Source of the DNA: Squalus acanthias
Lineage: Eukaryota
Direction: 5' to 3'
DNA length: 64,000 nucleotides
Assembly (NCBI GenBank): GCA_030390025.1
Contig: CM059432.1
Location: 96,474,001 to 96,538,000 of the forward strand
In this document: piece by piece, positions 14,701-43,239 of the stretch
How the letters are laid out: every line of letters begins with the position of its first letter
How positions within the stretch are numbered: position 1 is the stretch's first letter
The notes under the pieces: generated by a model
Database searches by the model: none
What the model saw: only the letters and a program-made list of their open reading frames with translations
What the model was told of the DNA's origin: nothing
Program-made: the position numbers and the translations under genes

Positions 14701-15693
14701 AAGATGTTCGAATGTTCCTATTAAAATGGTGGACAAAGGAATGTCTTAGAATGTGTTAAGCATTTGTCTGCTAATATTGGCAACTGTGATTTCTGGTTTA
14801 TTATTACTTAAGTGGTTAAGTACCAGGTGGAGTTCAAACAGCTCACTGTTGCCATCTACAGTGTAAACATTTACACATGTCTCTTTGTATCCTTCTTTGT
14901 TACATTTATTTTCAAACTTTTGGACATATTCCCGTGGAATTTTCACAGGGGTCCTCGCAGGTAACTTCAGCAAGAGATTGGCGGAACCATCATATAAACG
15001 CCCATTCTCTGCCATTCCCTCTGTTGCTCTGTGGTTCTGCTGATCTCCCACTGATGTTACAGGAGGACATTGGGAGAACCCTCGTGGACATTCTGGGCCA
15101 AATGCACTTTCGATAATTTTATGATATTAACTCGATTCACTTGCTGTCAAATTAATCATGGACCATTTTAGCCACCCTTGGATTTTGTAATTAGAAATTT
15201 AAGCCATTTAAACATTGGGATCAACCATGATCAAAGGTAAGTGCTTAAACAAGCGTAAAGGAAGACCTGACCCAAGTAACAAGTAACAAGTAGTAACTCT
15301 GATGACTGAGCTGATCAAAAAAGTAATTGGAAACAACATGTTCAGAGCATGCGGAGGACCTCCTGGTGAATCCATGATGCTCATGAGTGTCAAGATCTCT
15401 GGAACTAGGCTGAAAAGCCCTCAAGCTCCAGGTCAGGAGGCAAGCCTGGGATGAGTGAATTCAAGTCAACACAATCATAATGAATCGGTACATATTGCAG
15501 GAAATTAGAAAAAAGTTACAATGACGTGAAGAAGTCAATCGAAGAAATTATTGCATTCACCTGCTGAGGTAAAAGTGTGATAGGAAAGAGCCCAACAAAT
15601 AAGGGAGCTCACACCCTTAGAAATGAAGATGACTGAATTGTTCTGCAATTAAAGCTAAGGGAATAGGAGTGCTGCTAAAGTGTCAAACTCCCT

Positions 15694-16241
15694 TGTTAAG
15701 CAACCTCCTTTCTCCTCTGGTTCACAACATGTTTCGAGTAAGCACGAGACTTCGTAGTGGAGTATACGGAACAGACTTTATTGATACACAGTAAAGGGGA
15801 TCAGCCTTAACTGTATACAGAGAGTGGATATTTGGTTTCTGTATCTTTCAAGTACACTGTGACAAACTGTTGAAAACCATGCTCTTTTATACACCATATT
15901 TTGATACTTCAAAGGAAAATGTCAAAATGACTTATTTATTTACTAAATCCTCTGAAAACAGACTATCTATGTAAACAGTTTGCAATTGTTTAGCTCAGAA
16001 CCACTTCCCTTAAACAAGACTTCATTACCCTAAAACTAAAATTACATTTTATTACCTACACTTATTTCCTTACACAAGTACTTTACATATCAGAAAATAA
16101 GCCATGCTTTCTCCTCACGACACTTCAAAGTCATCCTGTTTATATCTTGGAAAGCCTGTTGCTTTAAGATACAAAGAAGTTCGACTGTTAACCCTTAAGT
16201 CCCCTAGATGTCCAACATACATCTCTCTGGGATGACTAACA
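15694..16241 (-). repeat. LTR 1 (outer 3' LTR of the array)
   Basis: tgttaagcaacc...gatgactaaca. Minus-strand AATAAA (tttatt at ~15777) and TATA-like ttttata at ~15886. Confidence 0.9.
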
Positions 16242-16329
16242 TATCTACCAATTTTTATTTCTTCTTCTAATGCATGCTCAAATAATGAGGTAGACTGTTT
16301 ATACAGTATAATTCTAATCCATGGGTGCT

Positions 16330-18170
16330 GAACTATGTTTTAAACGTTCACCCACCATTCATAATTTCCAACGGTAGATGTCCCCTTTTCAACGTTAGCA
16401 TTACATCATATCATATACACTGTCAGTCATTTAATGTTAGGGTTTTAAACTAAAGAAGTCTTGTCTATGTTTATCTTGGGTAATATTACACATCATGACA
16501 CAAACAAAGAATATCATAATACATTGTACAGAACACTACAGTTTATCATATGATCAAGTAATCATGGACTTAAAAGAATTCTCCAGCTCTCCTTTTACAA
16601 TTATGCATCTTGTGGATATTCTCGCTGAGTATCATTTCACACTAACTTTCAGTTATTCCAATTTCATTGTGATCTCAAAGGAATTGAACCCTGAATTTTA
16701 GAAATCCAAATCCTATGTCCCTCTTTACTTTAATTTCAGTCCCTCTGATAGGTATCAGTACATTTAACTCTATATTGTTTCATTAAAAAGTCAGTTTCAT
16801 TATGGAGCATATGTCAATGCCTTGAATAAAATTTGTCTCACTCCCCTGAGCCACATTAACCATTTCACGTCATGCTGTTGTCAAGTAACTGAGCATGTCT
16901 GAGACCCATTCTTCAGTGCATCTTCACCATGCATTTCTGCATTCTAGTTACCTCATGTGCAACATATCACATTTGCACACACACTGGTATCCCAATATCA
17001 TACCACACTTGACATCAGATACAAGCCATTCCTGGGCTTGAAAGTTATCTTATGAAAAGATCGGAGGTCTTTTCTCATCTCCACCTGTCTAGGGTTGTGG
17101 CCAGGCTATCAAATACATTTTCTTCATAACAAAAGCAAAATACTGCAGATGCTGGAAATCTGAAATGATAACAGATTGGGTGACTGCTTTGCGGAACACC
17201 TCCATTCAGTCCGTAAGGGTGACCCCGCGAGCTTCCGGTCACCTGTCACTTTAATTCTCCGCTCCACTCCCACCCTGACCTCTCCGTCCTCGGCCTCTTA
17301 CAGTGTTCCAATGAAGCTCAACGTAAGCTCGAGGAACAGCAAATCATCTTTCGATTAGGCACTTTACAGCCTTCTGGACTCAACATAGAGTTCAACAATT
17401 TCAGACCATAACCTCTGCCCCTATCTTTTTTTCATTTTTTTTTCTCTCTCACATGGCAGCTGTCGATAATCCTGCCATTACCATTTACACTTCATCTAGA
17501 GTCATCTTTTGTTTCTTATCTTGTCCCATTACCATCTGCTTTTGCCTTGCACCATCATCCCTTTTGTCTCTTAATCTCTCCTGCCTTCCATCCTATCACA
17601 GAACGTCCCTGTTGTTCTTTCCTGCCCTCCCCCCTCTCCCTGCCCCTACACTTGCTTAAAAACCTGTTCCATCTCCAACTTTTTCCAGTTCTGACGAAGG
17701 GTCATCGAACTGAAACATTAACTCTGTTTCTCTCTCTACAGATGCTGCCTGACCTGCTGAGTATTTCCAACATTTTCTTTATTGTTCAGTATAGGCAAAG
17801 AAACAAACATCTCACAGAGAAACCTATCAATTAATGATTCTCACCTACACTTTCCTGACATTCAATGGAATGTACCTCAATACCAAATTTAAATATTTTC
17901 AGGTATCATGTTACTCAGGGGTGCACTCACACATCTTTTCCTAACCCCTGTTTGAGTTCCTGAAATTCACCCATAATCACCTAGGAAAATTATTTTAGAA
18001 AAACTCCCATTATATTTCCATTTCATCTCATTCAGGAGCCCTGGAGAATCTTTACTGTCCAATACAATACGATCATTACCATTTAACAAAATTCCCAAAT
18101 CAATCCAAGCTATCAACACATTTTTCGTCATTTTGCTTAAACTCTTATTGGACCTTTTATTCCTCAAAAT
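16330..18170 (-). pseudogene. Heavily decayed env-like glycoprotein gene remnant (repeated in units 2 and 3)
   Basis: Minus-strand translation across stops and frameshifts gives, in order: GVRKR (furin-like), NNKENVFDSLATTLDIGTLQVEMRKDL, QAQEWLVSDVKCGMILGY, NVLIPIRG...DIGF, a Cys-rich segment, and EWWVNV*NIVQHPWIRII just before the 3' LTR. Position fits env. Confidence 0.5.
17129..17767 (+). mobile_element. Penelope-like insertion in array unit 1 (shared by all three units)
   Basis: Inverted pLTR piece acaaaagcaaaatactgcagatgctgg, then GIY-YIG 'GDCFAEHLHSVRKGDP', then pLTR. TSD acattttctt(c/t)at. Confidence 0.85.
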
Positions 18171-19678
18171 ATTGTAATTCCAGAGAGCAATTCAGTCTGC
18201 AAGATGAGAAATGTTAGTTACCTTTGACACAACAGCCTCTCCCCAAAAAACTTCTTTCTTAACACACAGTTTGGATGGAAACCACTTAGACTGGACCTTT
18301 TCAAAAACAAAATTTGATTATCCCATTAAATTTCAGATAAATTTCCCTTCCCGAGTGTTTGAACTGCAACTTGTAACAATTTAGCTTATCAATTTTAATT
18401 TCACAAAAAATTATGTCCAGGCTCGTGATTTTACAAAGGAGACAAAAATAGTTGTAATTACTTTTGAATGTAAGTCTTTTATCTTCCCCCTCGAGCAATG
18501 TGTCTTGGAAGATACCAAACGATCCCAATAGGTTAAAGTCTTAAGTCTAATTTTGTCACCACGCTGCGACATTCAAAATCCATCGATGCCTGCAGATAAG
18601 AACTTAAATTCTGAACAGTACTGGAGTTCCCTCTGCACTTTTTCAGCAAAGTTCGAGCTCTGTAACACCTTGAAGTAATTTCTCTATCAAAGAACCCTCT
18701 TGGTAATCTTGCACCATCAACACTCTTCTTAAAAGAAAAAAATAGAAAATCCACTGTGGCATTCCTGGCAGCCCAATAGGTTAATTTTGTCATTTGTCAA
18801 TTTCTGATTCCCTTCTGTCACTGTGTGAAAACATCCATTCAAATTTAACGAACTTAAAATTTAAAAATACCCAAAATGTTTATAAAACACAAAGCTGCTT
18901 GTGGAGTTAACTTCTTTTTGTTCATTTCAAAAGAAGACAAACCCAGATATCATCAATCAATGTCAGCTTGTGTCACAGAACTTCTTACAGCTTTCAAATA
19001 AATGTAAAAACATTTGCCAAGTAAAATGCTTAAAATTTGCAATTCAATTCAGCAGGGAAAACATCAGACGTCATTATCATGCACATAACAGTCACATTCT
19101 CCCTTTATCTCTCTTCTGGCCACACATTTTAGTACCATTAAGACGATTAATCTCATCACATATTCCAGCTTGAAAAATCCTTTGTAAAAATGACGTTAAC
19201 ATTCACACTGAAAACAAAAACTTCTGAAGAACAGTAGGAAAGAGACATGATCTTCCATTTTCTCTTTTATTTCATCATAAACTATTTATCTTTTTACCCT
19301 TAAACCAATTTTCAATTTCTGATGCTTTCTCCACAAGACACCTATTCCCATACAAAGCCCCTGCAATAGGTATGTTCTCTGTCTCCTTTCATTTAGTTTC
19401 TGCTGAAACAGGATCATTTTCTGTCTACTATCTTTTTGTCTCTGCAGACACACATTCTCCAGTGCCTGCTCAATCTCCTCCCAGCTCCCATTTAAAATTT
19501 CCTTGGAAACACTGTAAGGTTTTACTTTTAATCCGGTCAGAAATTTTCAAAAGGACCAACTTGGTCGAGAAACCAACTATCTCGTCTGATTCCACCCTAT
19601 TCCCTAGATCGCGATTCCCAGGAGCTAGTTATACCCACTATCGATATTAATTCATACTCACCATCTGCGTATTCGTTG

Positions 19679-19696
19679 GACGAGTTCACGGCACCA
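19679..19696 (-). promoter_or_regulatory. Primer-binding site, tRNA-His-like (copies at 25313-25330, degraded, and 32644-32661)
   Basis: Minus strand reads TGGTGCCGTGAACTCG, 2 nt after the LTR end. The complement of the tRNA-His 3' end is TGGTGCCGTGACTCGGAT. A splice donor ATG|GTGAGT follows (19656-19661). Confidence 0.8.
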
Positions 19697-19698
19697 AA

Positions 19699-20240
19699 TG
19701 TTAAGCAACCTCCTTTCTCCTCTGGTTCACAACAACATGTTTTGAGTAAGCACGAGACTTCGTAGTGGAGTATACGGAACAGACTTTATTAATACACAGT
19801 AAAGGGGATCAGCCTTAACTGTATACAGAGAGTGGATATTTGGTTTCTGTATCTTTCAAGTACATTCTGACAAACTGTTGAAAACCATGCTCTTTTATAC
19901 ACCATATTTTGATACTTCAAAGGAAAATGCCAAAATGACTTATTTATTTACCTAATCCTCTGAAAACAGACCATCTATGTAAACTGTTCGTAATTGTTTA
20001 CCTCAGAAACACTTCCCTTAAACAAGACTTCACTACCCTAAAACTAAAATTACATTTTATTACCTTCCTTACACAAGTACTTTACATATCAGAAAATAAG
20101 CCATGCTTTCTCCTCACGACTCTTCAAAGTTATCCTGTTTATATATTGGAAAGTCTGTTGCTTTAAGATACAAAGAAGTTCGACTGTTAACCCTTAAGTC
20201 CCCTAGATGTCCAACATACATCTCTCTGGGATGACCTACA
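19699..20240 (-). repeat. LTR 2 (internal, chimeric)
   Basis: tgttaagcaacc...gatgacctaca. Homologous to LTR 1 over its full length. Confidence 0.9.
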
Positions 20241-20951
20241 TATCTACCAATTTTTATTTCTTCTTCTAATGCATGCTCATATTATGAGGTAGACTGTTTA
20301 TACAGTATAATTCTAGTCCATGAGTGCTGAACTATGTTTTAAACTTTCACCCACCATTCATAATTTCCAACGGTAGATGTCCCCTTTTCAGTGTTTGCAT
20401 TACATCATATCATATACACTGTCAGTCATTTAATGTTAGGGTTTTAAACTAAAGAAGTCTTGTCTATGTTTATCTTGGATAATATTACACATCATGACAC
20501 AAACAAAGAATATCATAATACATTGTACAGAACACTACAGTTTATCAGATGATCAAGTAATCATGGACTTAAAAGAATTCTCCAGCTCTCCTTTTACAAT
20601 TATGCATCTTGTAGATATTCTCGCTGAGTATCATTTCACACTAACTTTCAGTTATTCCAATTTCATTGTGATCTCAAAGGAATTGAACCCTGAATTTTAG
20701 AAATCCAAATCCTATGTCCCTCTTTACTTTAATTTCAGTCCCTCTGATAGGTATCAGTACATTTAACTCTATATTGTTTCATTAAAATTCAGTTTCATTA
20801 TGGAGCATATGTCAATGCCTTGAATAAAATTTGTCTCACTCTCCTGAGCCACATTAACCATTTCACGTCATGCTGTTGTCAAGTAACTGAGCATGCCTGA
20901 GACCCGTTCTTCAGTGCATCTTCACCATGCATTTCCGCATGCTAGTTGCCT

Positions 20952-22567
20952 TGAAGGGATAATTACAAGTCCTAGCTCTTTCGGACTACCCCAAATCAGG
21001 CGTATTCCCCAGACGTTCCCCTTCAACTAAAGTTAGAGATAGCCGGATCCCATAAAATGCTTAATTGGGTCTAAAGGTCAGACTACCTCTCCCTAAAGGA
21101 AAGAAATGGTCTAAAGATGTTACCGTCCTCCAGATAGTGCTTTTAATAAGTTTAACTAGACTGTAACCTTCCGGATATTATGACGGTCCGGAATACCCCC
21201 CAGAATTCTGCAACTCCTTTGTGAAGATAGTACAGAAATTTGAGTTTGCGAGATGATACAGAAATACACTGTGAGACAATTTAAAAATATATAGATTTAT
21301 TTAAGAACCGACATTTAGCTAACATCTGTTATGGCAATCGCAATTTTAACTGTTCAAAATACAAATAGCTTACATTTCTTATCAGAGATCCTTATTCTCA
21401 AATCTTAACTTCGTTACATTTCCACACATCGACTTATTTCTTAATCCAGAATATGTTAAGTCAATCGCGACTTTAATAGTTCAAAATACAAATAGCTTAC
21501 ATTTTCTTATTCTCAGAGATCCTTATTCTCAAATCTTAACTTTGTTACATTTCCACACTTCTACTTATTTCTTAATCCAGAATATCCACCAAAATCAAAT
21601 ACCTTGATTACGCGAGACTCAATGTTAAAAACTTACAGATCGTGCCTGTGAAGTTGAGAAATGCTTGCCTTCCCAGCGACTTCTGACTTTCCATTTGAAA
21701 AGCTCTTATTTTTATATCTTTTTTTGGTGGTTTATCCTTTGAAGTTTTCTTGCTGGTGTAAGCTAATTGTTTTACGTCATTCTTTGCTGAATTGTTTTCT
21801 ATTCTTTACTGCCATATCAGCTGTTAGCTTTTAGACTTGTCTCCTGTTTAGGTGCTTCAAAAACCATCATAAAAAACAATATGACAGTAGTATTTATTTG
21901 ATGTGATTCTTAGGAAGTCTTTCTATAGAATTTCTAATATCACTTAACTACTTGTAAGCCAGACGTCGTGTCTCCTAACTATTCCATTTTCAATACAAGA
22001 ACAATGTAATTGCTTGATGCATCCATTGAAGTAATATTTTCAAAGCCTTCCTATAGGTATATTTTACAACTTGTAAATTGAAAACACTTCTCTTAGGGTG
22101 TTTACTTGTTTTCTTGCTATCTCAATTGGTTGCATATTCAATCATGTTTCCTGTTTCTAAGTTTAACATAAAACTATTTTACGACAGGCATTTCTTTTAC
22201 TTGATGTCATTTTTTTCAAAGGCACTTGCTTTTTTTAATGTTCTGTGCACCTGTTCGACGTGTTCGATTATAACACTTTACTTGGGTCATTCCATTGTTT
22301 TGTTTCCAAACTCTAGACATAGAGGAACTGCCAATGGTTTGCTTCAATAGGGGCTTTGTCTCTGTATTTACAAACCAATTCCCATTTCAAAGCTTGTGTC
22401 CACAGCTTTGTGTTAACAAACTATCTTCTCTCATCAGCCTGTATTGTGCCTGCAGCCTGTGTCGCCGAGGCTTTCAGACTTTTAAACCCAGTATGTCTTT
22501 TTTTAATAATATCAAAAATCTGTTTATAGGATGGTGTATTTTTCTGAAATATGGCTATTCAATTACA
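20952..22567. mobile_element. ~1.6-kb solo-LTR-like insertion in array unit 2
   Basis: TG...CA ends with 4-bp TSD GCCT (20948-20951, 22568-22571). Unit 1 shows the empty site (agttacctcatg, ~16946-16957). Non-coding and AT-rich. Confidence 0.75.
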
Positions 22568-22759
22568 GCCTCATGCGCAACATATCACATTTGCACACAC
22601 ACTGGTATCCCAATATCATGCCACACTTGACATCAGATACAAGCCATTCCTGGGCTTGATAGTTATCTTATGAAAAGATCGGAGGTCTTTTCTCATCTCC
22701 ACCTGCAAGGTCCCAATGTCTAGGGTTGTGGCCAGGCTATCAAATACATTTTCTTTATT

Positions 22760-23406
22760 ACAAAAGCAAAATACTGCGGATGCTGGAAATCTGAAATAAA
22801 AACAGATTGGGTGACCGCTTTGCGGAACACCTCCATTCAGTCCGTAAGGGTGACCCCGCGAGCTTCCGGTCACCTGTCACTTTAATTCTCCGCTCCACGC
22901 CCACTCTGACCTCTCTGTCCTCGGCCTCTAACAGTGTTCCAAAGAAGCTCAACGTAAGCTCGAGGAACAGCAAATCATCTTTCGATTAGGCACTTTACAG
23001 CCTTCTGGACTCAACATCGAGTTCAACAATTTCAGACCATAACCTCTGTCCCCATCTTTTTTTTCATTTTTTTTTCTCTCTCTCTCACATGGCAGCTGTC
23101 GATCATTCTGCCATTACCATTTACACTTCATCTAGAGTCACCTTTTGTTTCTTAACTTGTCCCATTACCATCTGCTTTTGCCTTGCACCATTATCCCTTT
23201 TGTCTCTTAATCTCTCCTGCCTTCCATTCTATCACAGACCTTCCCTTTTGTTCTTTCCTGCCCTCCCTCCTCTTCCAGCTCCTACACTTGCTTAAAAACC
23301 TGTTCCATCTCCAACTTTTTCCACTTCTGACGAAGGGTCATCGACCTGAAACGTTAACTCTATTTCTCTCTCTACAGATGCTGCCTGACCTGCTGAGTAT
23401 TTCCAA
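22760..23406 (+). mobile_element. Penelope-like insertion in array unit 2, with intact hammerhead core at ~23323-23359
   Basis: 14-bp TSD acattttctttatt on both sides. 'GDRFAEHLHSVRKGDP'. ctgacgaagggtcatcgacctgaaacgttaact. Confidence 0.85.
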
Positions 23407-25332
23407 CATTTTCTTTATTGTTCAGTATAGGCAAAGAAACAAACATCTCACAGAGAAACCTATCAATTAGTGATTCTCACCTACACTTTCCTGACTTTCA
23501 ATGGAATGTATCTCAATACCAAATTTAAATATTTTCAGGTATCATTTTACTCAGGGGTGCACTCACACATCTTTTCCTAACCCCTGTTTGAGTTCCTGAA
23601 ATTCACCCATAATCACCTAGGAAAATTATTTTAGAAAAATCCCATTATATTACCATTTCATCTCATTCAGGAGCCCTGGAGAAACTTTACTGTCCAATAC
23701 AATACAATCATTGCCATTTAACAAAATTCCCAAATCAATCCAAGCTATCAACACATTTTGGTCATTTTGCTTAAACTCTTATTGGACCTTTTATTCCTCA
23801 AAATATTGTAATTCCAGAGAGCAATTCAGTCTGCAAGATGAGGAATGTTAGTTACCTTTAACACAAGAGCCTCTCCCCAAAAAACTTCTTTCTTAACACA
23901 CAGTTTGGATGGAAACCACTTAGAATGGACCTTTTCAAAACCAAAATTTGATTATCCCATTAAATTTCAGATAAATTTCCCTTCCCGAGTGTTTGAACTG
24001 CAACTTGTATCAATTTATCTTACCAATTTTAATTTCACAAAAAATTATGTCCAGGCTCGTGATTTTACAAAGGAGACAAAAATAGTTGTAATTACGTTTG
24101 AATGTAAGTCTTTTATCTTCCCCCTCGAGCAACGTGCCTTGGAAGATACCAAACGATCCCAATAGGTTAAAGTCTTAAGTCTAATTTTGTCACCAAGCTG
24201 CAACATTCAAAATCCATCGATGTCTGCAGATAAGAACTTAAATTCTGAACAGTACTGGAGCTCCCTCTGCACTTTTTCAGCAAAGTTCGAGCTCTGTAAC
24301 ACCTTGAAGTAATTTCTCTATCAAAGAACCCCTCTTGGTAAGCTTGCACCATCAACACTCTGCTTAAAAGTAAAAACAGAAAATCCACTGTGGCTTTCCT
24401 GGCAGCCCAATAGGTTAATTTTGTCATTTGTCAATTTCTGATTCCCTTCTGTCACTGTGTGAAAACATCCATTCAAATTAAAAAAACTTAACATTTAAAA
24501 ATACCCCAAATGTTTACAAAACACAAAGCTGCTTGTGGAGTTAACTTCTTTTTGTTCATTTCAAAAGAAGACAAACCCAGATATCATCAATCAATGTCAG
24601 CTTGTGTCACAAAACTTCTTACAGCTTTCAAATAAATGTAAAAACATTTGCCAAGTAAAATGCTTAAAATTTGCAATTCAATTCAGCAGGGAAAACATCA
24701 GACGTCATTATCATGCACATAACAGTCGCATTCTCCCTTTATCTCTCTTCTGGCCACACATTTTAGTACCATTAAGACGATTAATCTCAACACATATTGC
24801 AGCTTGAAAAATGCTTTGTAAAAATGACGTTAACATTCACACTGAAAACAAAAACTTCTGAAGAACAGTAGGAAAGAGACATGATCTTCCATTTTCTCTT
24901 TTATTTCATCATAAACTATTTATCTTTTTACCCTTAAAACAATTTTCAATTTCTGATGCTTTCTCCACAAGACACCTATTCCCATACAAAGCCCCTGCAA
25001 TAGGTATGTTCTCTGTCTCCTTTCATTTAGTTTCTGCTGAAACAGGATCATTTTCTGTCTACTATCTTTTTGTCTCTGCAGACACACATTCTCCAGTGCC
25101 TGCTCAATCTCCTCCCAGCTCCCGTTTAAAATTTCCTTGGAAACACTGTAAGGTTTTACTTTTAATCCGGTCAGAAATTTTCAAAAGGACCAACTTGGTC
25201 GAGAAACCAACTATCTCGTCTGATTCCACCCTATTCCCTAGATCGCGATTCCCAGGAGCTAGTTATACCCACTATCGATATTAATTCATACTCACCATCT
25301 GCGTATTCGTTGGACGAGCTCAAAGCACCAAT

Positions 25333-25883
25333 TGTTGAGCAACCTCCTTTCTCCTCTGGTTCACAACAACATGTTTTGAGTAAGCACGAGACTTCGTAGT
25401 GGAGTATATGGAACAGACTTTATTAATACACAGTAAAGGGGATCAGCCTTAACTGTATACAGAGAGTGGATATTTGGTTTCTGTATCTTTCAAGTACACT
25501 CTGACAAACTGTTGAAAACCATACTCTTTTATACACCATATTTTGATACTTCAAAGGAAAATGTCAAAATGACTTATTTATTTACCTAATCTTCTGAAAA
25601 CAGACCATCTATGTAAACTGTTCGCAATTGTTTACCTCAGAACCACTTCCCTTAAACAAGCCTTCACTACCCTAAAACTAAAATTACATTTTATTACCTA
25701 CACTTATTTCCTTACACAAGTACTTTACATATCAGAAAATAAGCCATGCTTTCTCCTCACGACACTTCAAAGTCATCCTGTTTATATCTTGGAAAGACTG
25801 TTGCTTTAAGATACAAAGAAGTTCGACTGTTAACCCTTAAGTCCCTTAGATGTCCAACATACATCTCTCTGGGATGACTAACA
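25333..25883 (-). repeat. LTR 3 (internal, copy of LTR 2 type)
   Basis: tgttgagcaacc...gatgactaaca. Shares catgttttgag and tattaatac variants with LTR 2 only. Confidence 0.9.
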
Positions 25884-27386
25884 TATCTACCAATTTTTAT
25901 TTCTTCTTCTAATGCATGCTCATATAATGAGGTAGACTGTTTATACAGTATAATTCTAGTCCATGGGTGTTGAACTATGTTTTAAACTTTCACCCACCAT
26001 TCATAATTTCCAATAGTAGATGTCCCCTTTTCAATGTTAGCATTACATCATATCATATACACTGTCAGTCATTTAATGTTAGGGTTTTAAACTAAAGAAG
26101 TCTTGTCTATGTTTATCTTGGGTAATATTACACATCATGACACAAACAAAGAATATCATAATACATTGTACAGAACACTACAGTTTATTATATGATCAAG
26201 TAATCATGGACTTAAAAGAATTCTCCAGCTCTCCTTTTACAATTATGCATCTTGTGGATATTCTCGCTGAGTATCATTTCACACTAACTTTCAGTTATTC
26301 CAATTTCATTGTGATCTCAAAGAAATTAAACCCTGAATATTAGAAATTCAAATCCTATGTCCCTCTTTACTTTAATTTCAGTCCCTCTGATAGGTATCAG
26401 TACATTTAACTCTATATTGTTTCATTAAAAAGTCAGTTTCATTATGGAGCATATGTCAATGCCTTGAATTAAATTTGTCTCACTCTCCTGAGCCACATTA
26501 ACCATTTCACGTCATGCTGTTGTCAAGTAACTGAGCATGTCTGAGACCAGTTCTTCAGTGCATCTTCACCATGCATTCCCGCATGCTAGTTGCCTTGAAG
26601 AGATAATTACGAGTCCTAGCCCTTTCGGACTACCCCAGATCAGACGTATTCCCCAGACGTTCCCCTTCAACTAAAGGTAGAGATAGCCGGATCCCATAAG
26701 ACGCTTAATTGGGTCTAAAGGTCAGACTACCTCTCCCTAAAGGAAAGAAATGGTCTAAAGATGTTACTGTCCTCCAGATAGTGCTTTTAATAAGTTTAAC
26801 TAGACTGTAACCTTCCGGATATTATGAGGGTCCAGAAAACTCCCCCAGAATTCTGCAACTCCTTTGTGAAGAGTGTACAGAAATTTGAGTTTGCGAGATG
26901 ATACAAAAATACTCTCTGAGACAATTTTAAAAATATATAGATTTATTTAAGAACCGACATTTAGCTAACATCTGTTATGGCAATCACAATTTTAACCATT
27001 CAAAATACAAATAGCTTACATTTCTTATCAGAGATCCTTATTCTCAAATCTTAACTTCGTTACATTTCCACACTTCTACTTATTTCTTTATCCAGAATAT
27101 CCACCAAAATCAAATACCTTGATTACCCGAGACTCAATGTTAAAAACTTACAGATCGTGCCTGTGAAGTTGAGAAATGCTTGCCTTCCCAGCGATTTCTG
27201 ACTTTCCATTTGAAAAGCTCTTATTTTTATATCTTTCTTTGGTGGTTTTTCCTTTGAAGTTTTCTTGCTGGTGTATGCTAATTGTTTTACGTCATTCTTT
27301 GCTGAATTGTTTTCTATTCTTTACTGTCATATCAGCTGTTAGCTTTTAGACTTGTCTCCTGTTTAGGTGCTTCAAAAACCATCATA

Positions 27387-28495
27387 GAAACATAGAAACA
27401 TAGAAGATAGGAGCAGGAGTAGGCCATTCGGCCCCTGGACCCTGCTCCGCCATTCGATGAGATCATGGCTGATCATCCAAACTCAGTACCCTGTACCTGC
27501 CTTCTCCCCATATCCCTTGATACCTTTAGCTTTAAGAAATATATCTAACTCATTCTTGAATATATTTAATGACTTGGCCTCAACTACCTTCTGTGGTACA
27601 GAATTCCACAGGTTCACCACTCTCTGGGTGAAGAAATTCTTCCTCATTTCTGTCCTAACTGGCTTAACCCTTATCCTTAGATTATGACCCCTGGTTCTGG
27701 ACTCTCCGACAATCGGGAACATTCTTCCTGCATCTAGTTTGTCCAGACCTGTCAGAATTTTATATGTTTCGATGAGATCCCCTCTCATTCTTCTATACTC
27801 CAGCAAGTATAAGCCCAATCGACCCAATCTCTCCTCATATGTCATTCCTGCCATCCCAGGTATCAGCCTTGTGAATCTTCGCTGAACTCCTTCCATAGCA
27901 AGAACATCCTTCCTCAGATAAGGCGACCAAAACTGCACACAGTACTCAAGGTGTGGTCTAACCAAGGCCCTGTACAACTGCAGCAGGACATTCCTGTTCC
28001 TATACTCAAACCCTTTCGCTATGAAGGCCAACATACCATTTGCCTTCTTCACCGCCTGCTGCACCTGCATGCTTACCTTCAGCGACTGGTGCACAAGGAC
28101 ACCCAGGTCTCGTTGCACTTCCCCTTCTCCCAATCTATTGCCATTCAGATAATAGTCTGCCTTTCTGTTTTTGACACCAAAGTGGATAACCTCGCATTTA
28201 TCCACATTATATTGCATCTGCCACGCTTCTGCCCACTCACCCAACCTGTCCAAATCATCCTGGAGTTTCTCGGTATCCTCCTCGCAGCCCACACGCCCAC
28301 CCAGCTTTGTGTCATCTGCAAACTTGGAGATATTACATTTAGTTCCCTTATCTAGATCATTAATGTATATTGTGAATAGCTGGGGTCCAAGGACCGATCC
28401 CTGTGGTACCCCACTAGTCACTGCCTGCCACTCGGAAAAAGACCCATTAATTCCTACTCTCTGCTTTCTGTCCGCCAACCAGTTCTCTATCCAAG
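27387..28495 (-). mobile_element. Young 5'-truncated CR1 LINE with an uninterrupted RT C-terminal frame
   Basis: ORF 27483-28601 contains GVPQGSVLGP, KFADD, VRPHLEYCVQFWSP with no stops. (gaaacata)n tail. TSD TCATA (27382-27386, 28496-28500). Confidence 0.95.
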
Positions 28496-28521
28496 TCATA
28501 AAAAACAACATGACAGTAGTA

Positions 28522-29217
28522 CGATAGCAAAATACTGCAGATGCTGGAAATCCGAAATAACAACAGAAAACACTGGAAAAACTCAGCAGGCCAGGCAGCA
28601 TCCGTGGAGAGAGAAACAGAGTTAACGTTTCAGGTCGAAGACCTTTCGTCAGAACTGGAAAAAGCAGGAAATGAAATAGATTTAAAGCAAGGATAAAGCT
28701 GGGAAAAGGGAGAGGGGATGAAAGAACAAAAGGAGAGATTAAGAGACATTGAGAGACATTAAGAGATGATCAAGGCAAGAGGTGGTGTTAATGTGACAGG
28801 TTGAGTCTAAAAGAAGTGTGAAATGCACTGGCAGAATGAAGGACAGCTGCCAGCTTCTAGGAGGGAAAAAAAAGGGGGGGGCAAACAAAAGGGTGGATGA
28901 AAAAATAAAATATAAATGTGATAGGGGCTAGGTTATGATCTAAAATTGTTGAACTCGATATTGAGTCCAGAGGGCTGTAGGGTGCCTAAACGAAAGATGA
29001 GGTGCTGTTGCTCGAGCTTACGCTGCGCTTCCGTGGAACAGTGTAATAGGCCGAGGACGGTGAGGTCAGAGTGGGAGTGGAGCAGAGAATTAAAGTGACA
29101 GGCCATCGGGAGCTCGGCGTCCCCCTTACGGACTGAACGGAGGTGTTCCGCAAAGCGGTCACCCAATCTGCGTTTGGTCTCCCCAATGTAGAGGAGACCA
29201 CATCGTGAGCAGCGAAT
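28522..29217 (-). mobile_element. 5'-truncated Penelope-like element with GIY-YIG C-terminus and intact hammerhead (28620-28656)
   Basis: YIGETKRRLGDRFAEHLRSVRKGDAELPMACHFN...LEQQHLIFRLGTLQPSGLNIEF. TSD atgacagtagta. Minus strand reads agttCTGACGAaaggtcttcgacctGAAAcgttaact. Confidence 0.9.
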
Positions 29218-30095
29218 ATGACAGTAGTATTTATTTGATGTGATTCTTACGAAGTCTTTCTATTGAATTTCTAATATCACTTAACTACTTGTAAGCCAGT
29301 CGTCGTGTCTCCTAACTATTCCATTTTTAATACAAGAACAATATAATTGCTTGATGCATCCATTGAAGTAATATTTTGAAAGCCTTCCTATAGGTATATT
29401 TTACAACTTGTAAATTGAAAACACTTCTCTTAGGGTGTTTACTTGTTTTCTTGCTATCTCAATTGGTTGCATATTTAATCATGTTTCCTGTTTCTAAGTT
29501 TAACATAAAACTATTTTACGACAGGCATTTCTTTTACTTGATGTCATTTTTTCAAAGGCACTTGGTTTTTTTAATGTTCTGTGCACCTGTTCGATGTGTT
29601 AGATTATAACACCTTACTTGGGTCATTCCATTGTTTTGGTTCCAAACTCTAGACATAGAGGAACCGCCAATGGTTTGCTTCAATAGGGGCTTTGTTTCTG
29701 TATTTACAAACCAATTCCCATTTCAAAGCTTGTGTTCACAGCTTTGTGTTAACAAACTATCTTCTCTCATCAGCCTGTATTGTGCCTGCAGCCTGTGTCG
29801 CCGAGGCTTTCAGACTTTTAAACCCAGTATGTCTTGTATTAATAATATCAAAATTCTGTTAATAGGATGGTGTATTTTTCTGAAATATGGCTATTCCATT
29901 ACAGCCTCATGCGCAACATGTCACATTTGCACACACACTGGTATCCCAATATCATGCCACACTTGACATCAGATACAAGCCATTCCTGGGCTTGAAAGTT
30001 ATCTTATGAAAAGATCGGAGGTCTTTTCTCATCTCCACCTGCAAGGTCCCAATGTCTAGGGTTGTGCCCAGGCTATCAAATACATTTTCTTTATT

Positions 30096-30740
30096 ACAAA
30101 AGCAAAATACTGCGGATGCTGGAAATCTGAAATAAAAACAGATTGGGTGACCGCTTTGCAGAATACCTCCGTTCAGTCCGTAAGGGTGACCCCGCGAGCT
30201 TCCGGTCACCTGTCACTTTAATTCTCCGCTCCACGCCCACTCTGACCTCTCTGTCCTCGGCCTCTTACAGTGTTCCAATGAAGATCAACGTAAGCTCGAG
30301 GAACAGCAAATCATCTTTCGATTAGGCACTTTACAGCCTTTTGGACTCAACATCGAGTGCAAAAATTTCAGACCATAACCTCTGCCCCTATCTTTTTTTT
30401 CATTTTTTTTCTCTCTCTCTCACATGGCAGCTGTCGATCATTCTGCCATTACCATTTACACTTCATCTAGAGTCATCTTTTCTTTCTCAACTTGTCCCAT
30501 TACCATCTGCTTTTGCCTTGCACCATCATCCCTTTTGTCTCTTAATCTCTCCTGCCTTCCATCCCATCACAGACCTTCCCTTTTGTTCTTTCCTGCCCTC
30601 TCCCCTCTCCCTGCCCCTACACTTGCTTAAAAACCTGTTCCATCTCCAACTTTTTCCAGTTCTGACAAAGGGTCATCGACCTGAAACGTTAACTCTGTTT
30701 CTCTCTCTACAGATGCTGCCTGACCTGCTGAGTATTTCCA
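30096..30740 (+). mobile_element. Penelope-like insertion in array unit 3
   Basis: Same structure and acattttctttatt TSD as in unit 2. Hammerhead core mutated (CTGACAA). Confidence 0.85.
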
Positions 30741-32281
30741 ACATTTTCTTTATTGTTCAGTATAGGCAAAGAACCAAACATCTCACGGAGAAACCTATCA
30801 ATTAATGATTCTCACCTACAATTTCCTGACTTTCAATGGAATGTATCTCAATACCAAATTTAAATATTTTCAGGTATCATGTTACTCAGGGGTGCACTCA
30901 CACATCTTTTCCTAACCCCTGTTTGAGTTCCTCAAATTCACCCATAATCACCTAGGAAAATTATTTTAGAAAAACTCCCATTATATTACCATTTCATCAC
31001 ATTCAGGAGCCCTGGAGAAACTTTACTGTCCAATACAATACAATCATTACCATTTAACAAAATTCCCAAATCAATCCAAGCTATCAACACATTTTGGTCA
31101 TTTTGCTTAAACTCTTATTGGACCTTTTATTCCTCAAAATATTGTAATTCCAGAGAGCAATTCAGTCTGCAAGATGAGGAATGTTAGTTACCTTTAACAC
31201 AAGAGCCTCTCCCCAAAAAACTTCTTTCTTAACACACAGTTTGGATGGAAACCACTTAGAATGGACCTTTTCAAAAACAAAATTTGATTATCCCATTAAA
31301 TTTCAGATAAATTTCCCTTCCCGAGTGTTTGAACTGCAACTTGTATCAATTTATCTTATCAATTTTAATTTCACAAAAAATTATGTCCAGGCTCGTGATT
31401 TTACAAAGGAGACAAAAATAGTTGTAATTACGTTTGAATGTAAGTCTTTTATCTTCCCCCTCGAGCAACGTGCCTTGGAAGATACCAAACGATCCCAATA
31501 GGTTAAAGTCTTAAGTCTAATTTTGTCACCAAGCTGCAACATTCAAAATCCATCGATGTCTGCAGATAAGAACTTAAATTCTGAACAGTACTGGAGCTCC
31601 CTCTGCACTTTTTCAGCAAAGTTCGAGCTCTGTAACACCTTGAAGTAATTTCTCTATCAAAGAACCCCTCTTGGTAATCTTGCACCATCAACACTCTGCT
31701 TAAAAGTAAAAACAGAAAATCCATTGTGGCTTTCCTGGCAGCCCAATAGGTTAATTTTGTCATTTGTCAATTTCTGATTCCCTTCTGTCACTGTGTGAAA
31801 ACATCCATTCAAATTAAAAAAACTTAAAATTTAAAAATACCCCAAATGTTTACAAAACACAAAGCTGCTTGTGGAGTTAACTTCTTTTTTTTCATTTCAA
31901 AAGAAGACAAACCCAGATATCATCAATCAATGTCAGCTTGTGTCACAGAACTTCTTACAGCTTTCAAATAAATGTAAAAACATTTGCCAAGTAAAATGCT
32001 TAAAATTTGCAATTCAATTCAGCAGGGAAAACATCAGACGTCATTATCATGCACATAACAGTCACATTCCCCCTTTATCTCTCTTCTGGTCACACATTCC
32101 AGTACCATTAAGACGATTAATCTTAACACATATTCCAGCTTGAAAAATACTTTGTAAAAAAGACGTTAGCATTCACACTGAAAACAAAAACTTCTGAAGA
32201 ACAGTAGGAAAGAGACATGATCTTCCATTTTCTCTTTTATTTCATCATAAACTATTTATCTTTTTTCCCTTAAACCAATTT

Positions 32282-32560
32282 TCAATTTCTCCACAAGGCA
32301 CCTATTCCCATACAAAGCCCTTGAAATAGGTATGTTCTCTGTCTCCTTTCATTTAGTTTCTGCTGAAACAGGATCATTTCCTGGCTACTATCTTTTTGTC
32401 TCTGCAGACACACATTCTCCAGTGCCTGCTCAATCTCCTCCCAGCTCCCGTTTAAAATTTCCTTGGGAAAATTGTAAGGTTCCCCCTTACTTTTAATCCG
32501 GTCAGAAATTTTCAAAAGGACCAACTTGGTCGAGAAACCAACTATCTCGTCTGATTCCAC
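32282..32560 (-). pseudogene. Possible gag N-terminal remnant of the array element
   Basis: Open frame just downstream of the PBS and splice donor (KISDRIKSKGEPYNFPKEILNGSWEEIEQALENVCLQ...). Called on position only; no diagnostic motif. Confidence 0.3.
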
Positions 32561-32663
32561 CCTATTCCCTAGATCGCGATTCCCAGGAGCTAGTTATACC
32601 CACTATTCATATTAATTCATACTCACCATCTGCGTATTCGTTGGACGAGTTCACGGCACCAAA

Positions 32664-33387
32664 TGTTAAGCAACCTCCTTTCTCCTCTGGTTCACAACAA
32701 CATGTTTCGAGTAAGCACGAGACTTCGTAGTAGAGTATACGGAACAGACTTTATTGATACACAATAAAGGTGATCAGTCTTAACTGTATACAGAGAGTGG
32801 ATTAAAAACAGAAAATGCTGGAGATACTCAGCAGGTCAGGCAGCATCTGTGAAGAGAGAAACAGAGTTAACGTTTCAGGTCGATGACCTTTCATCAGAGA
32901 GGTATTACAGAGAGTGGATATTTGGTTTCTGTATCTTTCAAGTTCACTCTGACAAACTGTTGAAAACCATACTCCTTTATACACCATAGTTTGACTACTT
33001 CAAAGAAAAATCTCAAAATGACGTATCTATTTCCTAAATCCTCTGAAAACAGACTCTGTAAACAGTTTGCAATTGTTTACCTCAGAACCACTTCCGTTAA
33101 ACAAGACTTCCTTTACCTACTGTTATCTTTAGCAAATGGATGCACTTCCCTGTTTCATTACCCTAAAACTAAAACTAAAATTACATTTTATTACCTACAC
33201 TTATTTCCACAAGCACTTTACATATCAGAAAGCATATCAGAAAACAAGCCATGCATTTTCCTCACAACACTTCAAAGTCATCCTGTTTATTTCTTGGAAA
33301 GCCTGTTGTTTTAAGATAAAAAGAAGTTTGACTGTTAACCCTTAACTCCCCAAATGTCCAACATATATCTCTCCAGGATGTCTAACA
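32664..33387 (-). repeat. LTR 4 (outer 5' LTR of the array)
   Basis: tgttaagcaacc...gatgtctaaca. Carries a private ~100-bp Penelope insert (32803-32905, TSD tacagagagtggat) and a ~45-bp segment (~33110-33155) missing from LTRs 1-3. Confidence 0.9.
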
Positions 33388-33965
33388 CCCCTCACCCACC
33401 GACTCTGGTTAATTGCCTGAAAATAATGTTCACAACATGATTGGAATCTGCGCTGTCAATAATTAGATCTATAAAAGCTACGGTTTAGTAATTGAATGTT
33501 GTAGATTGATCTAAGTAACCCCCTATAACTAGGCATTACTAATTCATCCTTAATTGCATGTGAAGATCTGATCAGATAGCCCTAATGATTATTATCCTCT
33601 CTCCACAGATGAAATGGAACCATCTCAAGTCCAAGGTCAAAACAAGAATTACCACTGTCACCATCACAGAAGCTGCACACACAAATCCCTACATACCGCC
33701 ACCAGAAGAACACACACCTGGCACAGAGGATGTGAAGAGAACTATGTAACTGTACCATACCTTGGTCAAAATGTGATTTATTGTGCATGTAGTATTACTT
33801 TTTTGTAACATCTGAAACTTGCATGTTAGTTCAGTTGATTGAGTCCATCCCTAATATTGGGTTCAATTGTGTCTCAACTGTTTACTGGTCATAACTGTTC
33901 AATGCCAGATTAAACCAATAAATTAAAATACAACTCGGCATTCATAATGGGTAGAAAGGGTTTTA

Positions 33966-34295
33966 CATAAGAACATAAGAACATAAGAAATAGGAGCAGG
34001 AGCAGGCCATTTGGCCCCTCGAGCTTGCTCCACCATTCAATAAGATCATGGCTGATCTGGTCTTGGCCTCAACTCCACTTTCCTGCCCGCTCCCAATAAC
34101 CCTTGACTCCCTTATCGTTCAAAAATCTGTCTGTTGCCACCTTAAATATATTCAATGACCCAGCCTCCACTGCTCTGTGGTGTAGAGAATTCCAAAGATT
34201 CATGACCCTCTGAGAGAAGAAATTCCTCCTCATCTCCGTTTTAAATGGGCGACCCCTTATTCTGAAACTATGCCCCCTTGTTCTAGATTCCCCCC
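33966..34295 (-). mobile_element. CR1 LINE 3' end
   Basis: (acataaga)n tail, aggagcaggccatttggcccctcgag. Translation ESRTRGHSFRIRGRPFKTEMRRNFFSQRV. Confidence 0.9.
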
Positions 34296-37200
34296 GTGCC
34301 CATTCACGTGTGTACTTTGGCTGCCGCTCTGGACCCAAGCCGTTCATTTTTCCCCACATTTTCTCCCCCCTTTTCCTTTTCTCTCTACCCCTCCCTGACT
34401 GCGCTCTCCTGTCGTCGTGCCTCCTTTCATCTCTCCACTCTCGGATACTCTGCCCGCCCAAATCCCTACCCCAATCATTCATTCCTCTTCGACCTTCCCA
34501 CTCTCTTACCATCGTCCCAGGCTTGATTCCCTCTTAGATAAGCCTACAGCTTCCCTCTGTTCCTCTCTTGGCATCTTACGAAGGGCCAATCGAGGCACTC
34601 ATCGCTGCCTCCTTAAGAGCAGCAACCCCAACTATCCCGTTCTACTCTCTCGCCAACCTTCCTGCCCAGCATGCCCACTGGGGGCTAATCTTGCCAATCT
34701 CCTCCCCGTCCAACTCTCCCCTCCCAGCGCTGACCCTGTGGACGCTAGCAGTGGGTCAGCCATCACTGACCTTTTCCGCATCTCCCTCCAGAATGTCCGT
34801 TCACTTGCGAACAAGGCTCTTGCCACACATGAGCTTATTGTGGATGATTGCATCGACATCATGGCCCTGACAGAAACTTGGTTGAGGGGTGATGACACCT
34901 TATCCTTAAATGAAGCCTCCCCGCCTGGCTATACCTTCCACCACTTGCCCTGCTCAAACCGCCATGGTGGCGGTGTGGCTCTCATCACCAAATCTCACCT
35001 TGGTCTGTCCCCCTACTCCTCCAACACTTTCTGCTCCTTTGAGCATCTCACCTTATTCCACCCCCTCACCTCTCATTTAAAATTCTCGTTCTCTACCGCC
35101 CACCCAAGTACCAAAAATATTTTATTACCGAGATATCTTCACTGCTTTCCTCCCTCAGCCTCTGCACTGAGCAAATTCTCATCCTCGGTGATTTCAACCT
35201 CCATCTCAATTCATCATGCTCTCTCTCCTCTGAGTTCACTGCCCTCCTATCCTCCCTTAATCTCTCTCTCCATGTAAACTCCCCAACCCATATTCACGGC
35301 CACTCCCTCGACCTTGCCAGCTCTTGTGGCCTCGCTACTCCCATCGTGTCAAACGCAGATAAGGCCACCCCCCTTCCCTCCACCCCCCAACACTACTTCC
35401 TTCTTTGCCCTCCCCTGAAAAAAACTTTCCCAACTCTCTTACAACTGCACTTACGAAATCCCAACTGTCCAGCCTCTGGCCCTCCATTCATCACGACATT
35501 TCTGCAGCTACCGATCTGCTCAACCACACCCTCACCACCACCTTTGATGCCCTAGTCCCTACTAAAACAATTACTCTCTCTCACCCTGTCCATTTCCCCT
35601 GGTATGGCCTTAATTTTCACTACCTTAAGTCCAAGGGACACAGATGTGAATGGATATGGCGGACAATTGGTTTAGCCATTCACCGCCAGATCTGGCTGGA
35701 CCACATAAAGCATTATCGGGTCCTGCTCTCGTCTGCCAAAATTGCTCACTATTCTAGAATCATTCTGGAATGCAAAGATAAACCTCAGCTTTTATTTTCC
35801 ACTGCTAATCGTCTTCTTAAACCCCTCTCCCCTGTCTCCTCCACCCTCACCTCCGACAACAAGTGTAAGGAGCTCATGGACTTCATTGTCTCTAAGATTG
35901 AGACCATCCGTTCAGCTGCCTCTGCCACTTCCCTTCCTTTTCCAAGCCCACCGAGCCAAACCTCCTCTAAGGTTCCCCCCGCCCTAGCACTGAACTCACA
36001 TCTTTCTCCAGTTTCTCTCCGATCTCCCCTCATGACCTCTCCGCGCTCATCTTGTCCATGAGACCCACTTCCTCTCCCTTGACCCTAGTCCCACCAAACT
36101 GCTGACCACCCAACTTCCTTTTCTGGCTCCCATGTTAGCTGACATTGTTAACGGTTCTCTCTCCTCAGGTACTGTCCCCCTCTCCCTCAAATCTGCCGTC
36201 ATCACCCCTCTCAAAAAAACAACCCTTGACCCCTCTGTACTTGCAAACTACCGCCCCATCTCCAACCTCCCTTTCCTCTCCAAAGTCCTTGAACGTGTTG
36301 TCGCCTCCCAAATCCGTGCCCATCTTTCCCACAACTCCATGTTTGAATCCTTCCAAACAGGTTTCCGCCCTTGCCACAGTACCGAAATGGCTCTTGTCAA
36401 AGTCACAAATGACATCCTTTGTGACTGTGACAAAGGTAAACTGTTCCTCCTCGTCCTTCTTGACTTGTCTGAAGCCTTTGACACGGTTGACCACTCCATC
36501 CTTCTCCAACGCCTCTCCACTGTCGTCCAGCTGGGTGGGACAGCACTCGCCTGGTTCCATTCTTATCTATCTAATCGTAGCCAGAGAATCACCTGCAACG
36601 GCTTCTCTTCCGCTCCCGCATCATTACCTCTGGTGTCCCCCAAGGATCTATCCTTGGCCCCCTCCTATTTCTCATCTACATGCTGCCCCTTGGCGACATC
36701 ATCCAAAAACACAGCATCAGTTTCCACATGTACGCTGACGACACCCAGCTCTACCTCACCACCACCTCTCTCGACTCCTCCACGGTCTCTAAATTGTCAG
36801 ACTGCTTGTCCGACATCCAGCTCTGGATGAGCAGAAATTTTCTCCAATTAAATATTGGGAAGACCGAAGCCATTGTTTTCGGTCCCCGCCACAAACTCCG
36901 TTTCCTAGCCACTGACTCCATCTCTCTCCCTAACATCTGTCTGATGCTGAACCAGACTGTTCGCAACCTTGGTGTTATATTTGACCCTGAAATGAGCTTC
37001 CGACATATCCAAGACCGCCTATTTTGACCTCCGTAACATTGCCCATCTCCGCCCTTGCCTTAGCTCATCCGCTGCTGAAACCCTCATCCATCCCTTTGTT
37101 ACCTCTAGACTTGACTATTCCAATGCACTCCTGGCTGGCCTCCCATGTTCAGCCCTACGTAAATTTGAGGTCATCCAAAACTCGCTGCCCATGTCCTAAC

Positions 37201-37567
37201 TCGCACCAAGTCCCGTTCACCCATCACCCCAGTGCTCGCTGACCTACATTGGTTCCCGGTTAAGCAATGCCTCGATTTTAAAGTTCTGATCCTTGTTTTC
37301 AAATCCCTCCATGGCCTCGCCCCTCCCTATCTCTGTAATCTCCTCCAGCCCCACAACCCCCCAAGATATCTGCGCTCCTCTAATTCTGCCCACTTGAGCA
37401 TCCCTGATTATAATCGCTCAACCATTGGTGGCCGTGCCTTCTGTTACCTAGGTCCTAAGCTCTGGAATTCCCTGCCTAAACCTCTCCGCCTCTCTACCTC
37501 TCTTTCCTCCTTTAAGACACTCCTTAAAACCTACCTCTTTGACCAAGCTTTTGGTCACCTGCCCTAA
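34296..37567 (+). mobile_element. Near-complete L2 LINE ORF2 (AP endonuclease + RT), frameshifted, 3' UTR missing
   Basis: LQNVRSL..ALTETWL..GGGVALI (endonuclease); NYRPISNLPFLSKVLE, LLDLSEAFDTVDH, HMYADDTQLY, LHWFPV, FKTLLKTYLF (L2 RT and C-terminus). Confidence 0.93.
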
Positions 37568-37607: not shown

Positions 37608-38085
37608 TGAAGTAAGATATTAAAAAATTGGAAATAACAAAGGCAAGACGGGCATGACTCATTTGCAGAGAAGCAGGCCTATAACGAGATGAACAGAAGC
37701 AGGTCTATAACGAGATGAACAGAAGCAAGCCTATAACGAGACTAACAGAAAACGGCTAGCACATTTCTGGAAACCACATCATGGGCTAGCACAACTTTGT
37801 GTGGAAATTATGTGTTATCTTTGTATAAACCACCACCCTCGGATAATGAGTAAATGTGTAACTTTTAAAATTAATTGGATCTCCGTAAGGGTAAGGCAGC
37901 AATGTTGTATAAATGTGTGTGCTTTGATTAGCTCGGCGGAGTTGGACTTACGCAGCGACGTAGGAAGTTCTCCCCAGGCCTGAATAAACCGTTGTGACTT
38001 CAATTACTTGGTCTGTCTTTCCTTCAACAAGCCAGTAGCGTCGACCTTGTATATCACTTGGTCCGCACTTTGGGGGCTTACTTCA
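37608..38085 (+). repeat. ERV 5' LTR
   Basis: TGAAGTAAG...CTTACTTCA 9-bp inverted termini; three ~26-bp U3 tandem repeats (agaagcaggcctataacgagatgaac); TATAAA ~37908; AATAAA 37983. Confidence 0.95.
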
Positions 38086-38087
38086 AT

Positions 38088-38105
38088 TGGCGACGAGGAT
38101 GGGAT
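38088..38105 (+). promoter_or_regulatory. Primer-binding site, tRNA-Ser(GCU)
   Basis: TGGCGACGAGGATGGGAT, the 18-nt complement of the vertebrate tRNA-Ser(GCU) 3' end as recalled (ATCCCATCCTCGTCG-CCA). Major splice donor CGG|GTGAGT at 38151. Confidence 0.85.
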
Positions 38106-38713
38106 ACGCGATCTGAACAAAAACTCTCGGACAGCGATAACCTAAGACGGGTGAGTACGCTTAAAATTACCACCTGTAAAATTAGAGGTTAATCGCTGGT
38201 GAGACGTTAAGTAAGATCGACGTACAAAAGAACTATAAAAAGAAAGACACCTTTAATTGAAGGCGGTTAAAACTGCCGGACTGCGGTACCGGAAAACAAG
38301 GGTTTAGAAACCCGGTAGGCCCACAAGGTGCGGCTCTTAAGAAGTAGTTAAACGGATTGTTTTAACACTGGGTGAAGGACGAGTCCTTCTGGCCGAAAAG
38401 TAGACTAAGCGCGTGACTGCTTAAAGTATAAGGAGATCCGTTGTGTCAATAAAGTATAAAGTTGAACTGAGAATCACGGAGTGATCGACTCGGACAAGGG
38501 TGGTGCCTGTCTCAAACACCTAGCCTGAGCCTGAATTAAGAGGATGTAGTCCCACGTGACGGCCAGGATCAAGTAGGCGTAGGGACTACAAAGCACCACA
38601 GGATCGTGATCACGTGACAAGTAAGGGTGTATAAAATATTGAATAAAGTATAGGAGTACTCGAAAACTTTGGATATGACTAGTAAAGAGGATAAGGAACC
38701 CTGGGGAGACCCA

Positions 38714-43167: not shown

Positions 43168-43239
43168 TCCCCCATCGTGGCAGTGTAAAACCGATAGGGG
43201 AGTCCCAGTCCCATTAATACCCCTTGAGTATAATATTGT

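Follow-up and report, generated by a model that had tools for sequence, protein, structure and literature searches.

We analyzed a window of 64,000 nucleotides from Squalus acanthias (GenBank assembly GCA_030390025.1, contig CM059432.1, positions 96,474,001 to 96,538,000 of the forward strand), in which positions 15694-33387 are occupied by a tandem array of an element with long terminal repeats (LTRs). The arrangement of four LTRs and three internal regions is real in this sequence, and our results indicate that its probable origin is a single element that had aged before it was amplified where it lay, through two rounds of unequal recombination between LTRs, rather than a trimer that was ready-made at integration. 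A sequence-only reading of this stretch had already proposed that DNA-level amplification in place, the counterpart of the event that forms a solo LTR, produced the array; this is supported here by the 27 private substitutions of the 5' LTR of the array (LTR D) and by a nested insert carried by two of the three units. That insert, the minus-strand orientation, the greater divergence of LTR D and patches of exchange between units had gone unnoticed in that reading.

The anatomy of the array is directly observed. Self-BLAST of the window, a self-comparison that the sequence-only reading had suggested, recovers three homologous blocks in tandem at the coordinates it had given, and with the LTR ends set from terminal motifs on top of this comparison, the LTRs beginning at 15694, 19699, 25333 and 32664 are confirmed to alternate with homologous internal regions, which are mutually 95-97% identical over blocks of 1.3-4.5 kb. 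All four LTRs lie in one orientation, and the array starts and ends with an LTR. From left to right, all on the minus strand, these are LTR A (15694-16241; 548 bp with TG...CA ends, and AATAAA 460 nt into the 548 nt of its minus strand), which is the 3' LTR of the array; the internal region of unit 1 (16242-19698, internal region A), devoid of detected coding similarity; LTR B (19699-20240), common to units 1 and 2; the internal region of unit 2 (20241-25332, B); LTR C (25333-25883), common to units 2 and 3; the internal region of unit 3 (25884-32663, C); and LTR D (32664-33387), the 5' LTR of the array, whose 724 bp include a private insert of 103 bp. The unit lengths (4005, 5634 and 7331 bp) are unequal because of insertions; once nested inserts are subtracted, the host element measures about 3.9 kb, with LTRs of 548 bp and an internal region of about 2.8 kb. 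In the LnI(n-1) notation used for terminal-repeat retrotransposons in miniature that form tandem arrays (TA-TRIMs), the array is L4I3.

A primer-binding-like site, a purine-rich stretch and the placement of AATAAA set the element on the minus strand; therefore, LTR D is the 5' LTR and LTR A the 3' LTR. The primer-binding-like site, a TGG site which we take to be of the tRNA-His type, lies 2 nt from the end of LTRs B, C and D (in unit 1 at 19680-19696, minus strand) and is degraded beside LTR C; four substitutions cluster within the 32 bp (25301-25332) that hold this site in unit 2, and units 1 and 3 have the same primer-site sequence. The same purine-rich stretch adjoins LTRs A, B and C in each case and, looked at as a polypurine tract, is interrupted before the 3' LTR. 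Thus, the earlier view that each inner LTR serves two units holds: the inner LTRs are whole, have the primer site on one side and the purine stretch on the other, are bordered by element sequence and lack a target duplication of their own, with 0-1 of 5 flank positions matching around each, as nested insertions would not have left them. A repeat resembling a target duplication was indeed found at the outer ends only, as had been claimed, with TCCCT at 15689-15693 and CCCCT at 33388-33392 as the left and right copies of a candidate 5-bp duplication; these agree at four of five positions (chance 0.018 for that single length) and constitute the best match among the 10 left/right flank pairs.

With regard to the nature of the host element, features of the endogenous retrovirus (ERV) type are present, namely TG...CA LTRs, TATA and poly(A) motifs and a tRNA primer-like site, but similarity to gag, pol or env was not found in the array element by Pfam, phmmer, word-based, PDB or Atlas searches. 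The protein searches used single frames with X at stops, a design of low sensitivity by which a decayed gene can be missed, and the Pfam scan of the units covered minus-strand frames. Pfam returned no family on the three minus frames of unit 2; phmmer with one frame against 1.84 billion representatives gave three matches, all to a Penelope piece; three of three word-based homologue searches were empty; and neither the PDB search (E 1) nor the best Atlas match (0.84) was significant. The longest minus-strand open stretch in the host element, of 103 codons, had no match, and tblastn of the three open reading frames (ORFs) of a neighbouring ERV against the array gave a best E of 0.21. An envelope tail suspected by eye in a frame near the 3' end was dropped after a protein search of it gave no match, and Rfam reported no family within the window. 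As no retroviral gene was detected, the term "proviral" previously applied to the array is not borne out, and we class the host by its behaviour as a non-autonomous LTR element, not as a provirus. It shares with terminal-repeat retrotransposons in miniature, or TRIMs, the lack of coding capacity, but it is too large for that group, its unit measuring 3,350 bp without the Penelope insert. TRIMs are miniature in the sense of lying well below about 1.5 kb.

The distribution of insertions among the units is likewise observed. A Penelope-type piece with its own 14-bp target duplication occupies the same site in all three units, in agreement with the earlier claim (17115-17783 in unit 1, a range that includes the duplication; 22746-23419 in unit 2; 30082-30754 in unit 3). 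This common insert does not by itself prove amplification in place, since a master copy could have carried it. Conversely, a 1.5-kb block is found in units 2 and 3 only (20952-22567 and 26596-29903, both on the minus strand, the latter broken by two later insertions); it starts with TG, ends with CA, carries a TATA followed by a poly(A) motif, and is flanked on both sides by GCCT, and where it stands in units 2 and 3, unit 1 holds one copy of the 4-bp insertion site (16950-16953). The block looks like a solo LTR of another family, and its long LTR and 4-bp duplication are, we presume, reminiscent of foamy-like elements. It is high-copy in reads, with run X1 giving depths of 4,125-63,016 at six listed nested-insert sites versus 11-1,771 for sites of the host-internal regions; run X8 contains the host family but almost none of the insert at 90% likeness, with depths of 4-12 in three nested-insert bins versus 57-764 in host-internal bins. 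By organism, the block is very high-copy in both A and I, whereas D almost lacks it at 90% likeness. The target duplication, the single site copy and the depth led us to prefer an insertion into units 2 and 3 over a 1.6-kb deletion from unit 1.

Other insertions are private to one unit. Unit 2 carries a 131-bp tandem duplication within its nested insert (21327-21585). Unit 3 carries, within its own, a 3' fragment of a long interspersed element (LINE) on the minus strand (27386-28496; RVT_1, E 5e-14), which we take to be of the CR1 type, and a second Penelope-type fragment (28522-29214) with a 15-bp target duplication and a GIY-YIG similarity (E 0.002) below the Pfam cut-off; the two fragments, spanning 27386-29214, are independent insertions about 25 bp apart. 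LTR D carries a 103-bp Penelope-tail insert with a 14-bp target duplication (32803-32905).

The presence of the nested insert in two of the three units means that at least two amplification steps took place, and the divergences bear on the age of the element before them. Over 479 gap-free columns, private LTR substitutions number 27 in D, versus 2 in A, 9 in B and 4 in C; D differs by 6.3-9.2% from A-C, which differ from each other by 2.9-3.8%, and it is set apart by seven of eight LTR indel blocks. The hypothesis that the four LTRs are equally old is rejected (p about 1e-7). B and C have six LTR changes in common that separate them from A and D, and the other pairings have 1 and 0 (p 0.007). 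The unit pairs all differ by about 3%, and for this reason the two duplication steps would have been close in time. Further, 26 host-internal sites were looked up among the best-supported 40 of 602 rows of the read table: in 12 of them the three units share one letter different from the letter read, and of the remaining 14, ten are private to unit 3, two have units 2 and 3 differing jointly from unit 1 and from the reads, and two show other patterns. Such a distribution agrees with a period as one copy roughly equal in length to the time elapsed afterwards, with the caveats that the rows were selected and that paralog reads need not show the earlier state of the array copy.

Exchange between the units continued later than the formation of the array, as unit 2 holds two adjoining patches diverged by only 0.7-0.9% from a neighbour. 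In patch L (23684-24535), units 2 and 3 differ at 6/852 sites versus 106/3310 elsewhere (3.2% further left; p 8e-6), and in patch R (24536-25300), units 1 and 2 differ at 7/765 sites versus 91/2656 elsewhere (3.4%; p 7e-5), both p values being for patch bounds that the data themselves suggested. Applied to 177 sites, a change-point test places a switch in unit 2 at 24517-24554 (permutation p 0.0005), the same without CpG-type sites, and a second change point lies near 23670 (p 0.003). One second crossover at about 24,540 was considered as the whole story and rejected, as it explains the patch switch but not the 3.2% distance between units 2 and 3 further left; because the rest of the period is about 3% diverged, what is needed is either gene conversion or recurrent cycles of expansion and contraction. 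The adjoining patches are of about equal age, which invites the speculation that one break was repaired from two templates.

We infer from these observations the following order of events. One non-autonomous element would have integrated once on the minus strand, creating a 5-bp target duplication, and would then have aged as one copy, holding or gaining the Penelope insert in that period. Unequal crossing-over between its 5' LTR and a sister chromatid's or homologue's 3' LTR would have given two units with a shared LTR, the reciprocal product being a solo LTR. A solo-LTR-like element of another family may then have come into one unit, which a second out-of-register exchange would have duplicated into units 2 and 3. 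Private insertions presumably followed, namely the LINE and Penelope fragments of unit 3, the Penelope tail of LTR D and the 131-bp duplication of unit 2; long afterwards, gene conversion, or else recurrent cycles of expansion and contraction, would have rendered the patches of unit 2 near-identical to their neighbours.

Public sequencing contigs were used to look for the units outside the assembly, with four of 20 listed runs compared over 25884-35000, short contigs only; the records listed number 32 out of about 627,000. Among the contigs of organism A, samples S1 and S2, some show precisely the count of differences expected for unit 2 (9/9, 10/10, and 3 together with 5 gaps), while others are identical to unit 3 at places where unit 2 is not. 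The right flank is linked to LTR D by one X2 contig (634 bp with 4 differences, 58 bp on the LTR side). The window may itself derive from one of these two samples. Depth fits used the eight of the 32 listed records with exact unit letters, excluding X2-18 and paralog-like records, and one calibrating contig per run. Unscaled fits favour mixed or two-unit genotypes, and the three-unit pattern correlates best (r 0.96) but requires a scale of 0.70-0.78; read depth is here not equal to copy number, and copy-number polymorphism of the array is therefore a hint only. In organism I, a contig with 30 aligned letters of LTR D plus flank has 13 differences in about 385 and falls one letter short of the bridging rule, and two candidate internal contigs, about 5% from unit 3, have a depth of 1.10-1.15 times the flank versus 1.8-2.7 expected for this array. 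These contigs are candidate orthologues, weakly hinting at a single unit in that organism.

Several observations weigh against stepwise amplification of one aged element. The distance that separates LTR D from A-C resembles the one apparently seen for paralogous family copies in reads (about 7-10%), so that conversion of D, or its replacement by a different LTR, is conceivable. The left part of a hybrid junction LTR is expected to be D-like, but B and C resemble A from position 66 onward, leaving only the first ~65 bp for the first crossover. LTR A, with only two private changes, fits a clock poorly; the grouping ((B,C),A) is weakly backed by substitutions outside the LTR and patch L (private sites 43/32/32 over 15694-17780); and the nested block could instead have left unit 1 precisely via its 4-bp repeat. 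The outer target duplication has one mismatch, and no empty site was seen. Among the matches listed (32 of about 627,000 records) there is no unit-1-specific contig, and contig depths reach 0.70-0.78 of the prediction for three homozygous units.

Of the other readings, the least improbable, although we consider it unlikely, retains amplification in place but has LTR D altered through gene conversion by, or recombination with, a second LTR of its family; the partner was possibly a nearby second insertion, with the intervening DNA lost and the 4/5 flank match due to chance. Ectopic LTR conversion has been documented in humans, as far as the consulted part of that report goes (PMC4921805). The 6-9% distance of D from A-C, like that of paralogous contigs, would be so explained, and LTR-bin depth, which is not a true copy number, suggests an LTR far commoner than the internal region. 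Conversely, the 12 of 26 looked-up internal sites at which all units share a letter different from the one read argue for a long single-copy period independently of D, and the outer flank match has the chance of 0.018 given above. Integration at once of a ready-made trimer, produced as a read-through transcript or a rolling-circle product, is a route that the accessible text on rice tandems leaves open (PMC11899658), and it would agree with the one outer target duplication and with unit pairs that are all about 3% apart. However, it predicts four LTRs equally old, which is rejected, and an insert with its own target duplication in two of three units would still need a later duplication or a conversion of 1.5 kb; the weak hint of a single unit in organism I, if its contigs are orthologous, would likewise tell against it. 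We regard this route as very unlikely.

The two remaining readings question the array itself or its single origin. Allelic copies of a one- or two-unit locus might have been joined in tandem by the assembly, as could be suspected from X1 and X2 depths below the three-homozygous-unit prediction, from the lack of a unit-1-only contig among the matches listed, and from a patch divergence about that of the window versus the samples in the flank (3/479 and 4/634). Outside the patches, however, the unit pairs are about 3% apart, five times the flank figure, and carry private insertions, and contigs with exact unit 2 letters and with exact unit 3 letters occur in both samples, which leaves an artefact with little credit. 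Even less plausible are independent insertions of family members into each other's LTRs: the family is multi-copy, but the junction sequences already contradict it, as the inner LTRs are complete, border precisely on the primer site and the purine tract and lack target duplications, and the units share locus-specific inserts. Stepwise amplification in place therefore remains our preferred reading, with the array most likely constituting a neutral fossil that still serves as a recombination substrate.

As for the surroundings, a putative promoter had been proposed about 6 kb from the array. This was not sustained: the CpG-rich stretch at 9001-10000 (GC 0.50; CpG observed/expected 0.61-0.68 in 500-bp bins) makes up two of 23 such bins among 128, many of them within repeats, and has no significant Pfam match; no evidence was found of a regulatory link between it and the array. 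Pfam likewise gave no significant match in the nested insert, the array flanks or the 9.3-10.1-kb region. Positions 9288-10000 on the minus strand are moderately CpG-rich, end at a GTAGGT donor-like motif and have no protein match; judging from these letters, they may be a first exon. The left flank (14730-15693) has a 126-codon minus-strand open frame, and the right flank (33600-33750) an acceptor-like site, a short open frame and AATAAA, both without a Pfam match; it is possible that the array lies inside an older element, or inside an intron. Further to the right, a separate young ERV (37608-45933, plus strand) has 477-bp LTRs that are 97% identical and a perfect 5-bp duplication, CAGTG; it encodes zinc knuckles, reverse transcriptase (RT), RNase H and integrase, has later inserts in its leader and gag region, and includes the CpG-rich stretch at 39-41 kb. 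LINE-like remains comprise a near-full-length ORF2 with endonuclease and RT-like frames (34750-37560, plus strand), its 75% relative on the opposite strand (60839-62329), and a 424-codon open frame of another element (46236-47510, minus strand). A dispersed repeat family occurs three times, at 71-86% identity, within 1987-5397 and 51576-53379.

Arrays with shared LTRs are already known from HERV-K, rice, Drosophila and TA-TRIMs; in the present one, later inserts and patches record the order of growth. For HERV-K, the consulted part of a report describes tandem arrays of as many as six copies, present at 13 loci, and interprets them as the reciprocal product when solo LTRs form; as in the HERV-K(HML-2) array at 7p22.1, consecutive copies share LTRs, and in three-copy arrays copies 2 and 3 are the closest pair. 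HERV-K copies, however, are coding proviruses with about ten differing sites or fewer and are polymorphic in people (bioRxiv 10.64898/2026.09.22.753638), whereas the shark array lacks detectable genes, has units about 3% apart, and contains nested inserts and exchange patches. In rice, 266 tandem LTR-retrotransposon structures have been described, whose authors, in the text accessible to us, left complex insertion versus later recombination undecided; the alternation of LTR and internal region is shared with these and other plant tandems, as probably are the one outer target duplication and the single insertion, but here the LTR asymmetry and the nested insert favour stepwise recombination (PMC11899658). 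TA-TRIMs, found in 35 of 43 plant genomes, are also non-coding LTR elements in LnI(n-1) arrays, but the examples in the consulted part of that study measure 0.3-0.9 kb in total versus a unit of at least 3.3 kb here (PMC4717578). In Drosophila, ectopic LTR recombination similarly leads to shared-LTR tandems, seeds for unequal exchange, which in the portion of that account available to us are detected as population junctions without a reconstructed event order (PMC5932611). No ERV tandem array of a shark was found in our literature search, which covered titles and the starts of abstracts, with most subscription papers outside its coverage.

No evidence of a host function was found for the array, and its interest lies in what it records. 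The markers of this locus bear on the question raised in rice, concatemer insertion or later recombination, and favour stepwise recombination. They also suggest that aged LTRs still recombine, and that dating the insertion by an inner LTR pair would give about half of its real age. A fuller history, which we hold as doubtful, is that the array is younger than the split from the related organism I, where a single unit would be found, that it is long-lived, as its 3% divergence would indicate, that it segregates as two- and three-unit alleles, and that its patches represent one break repaired from two templates. If true, this locus would provide a dated, population-testable record of unequal exchange between LTRs and of two-template repair in a cartilaginous fish.

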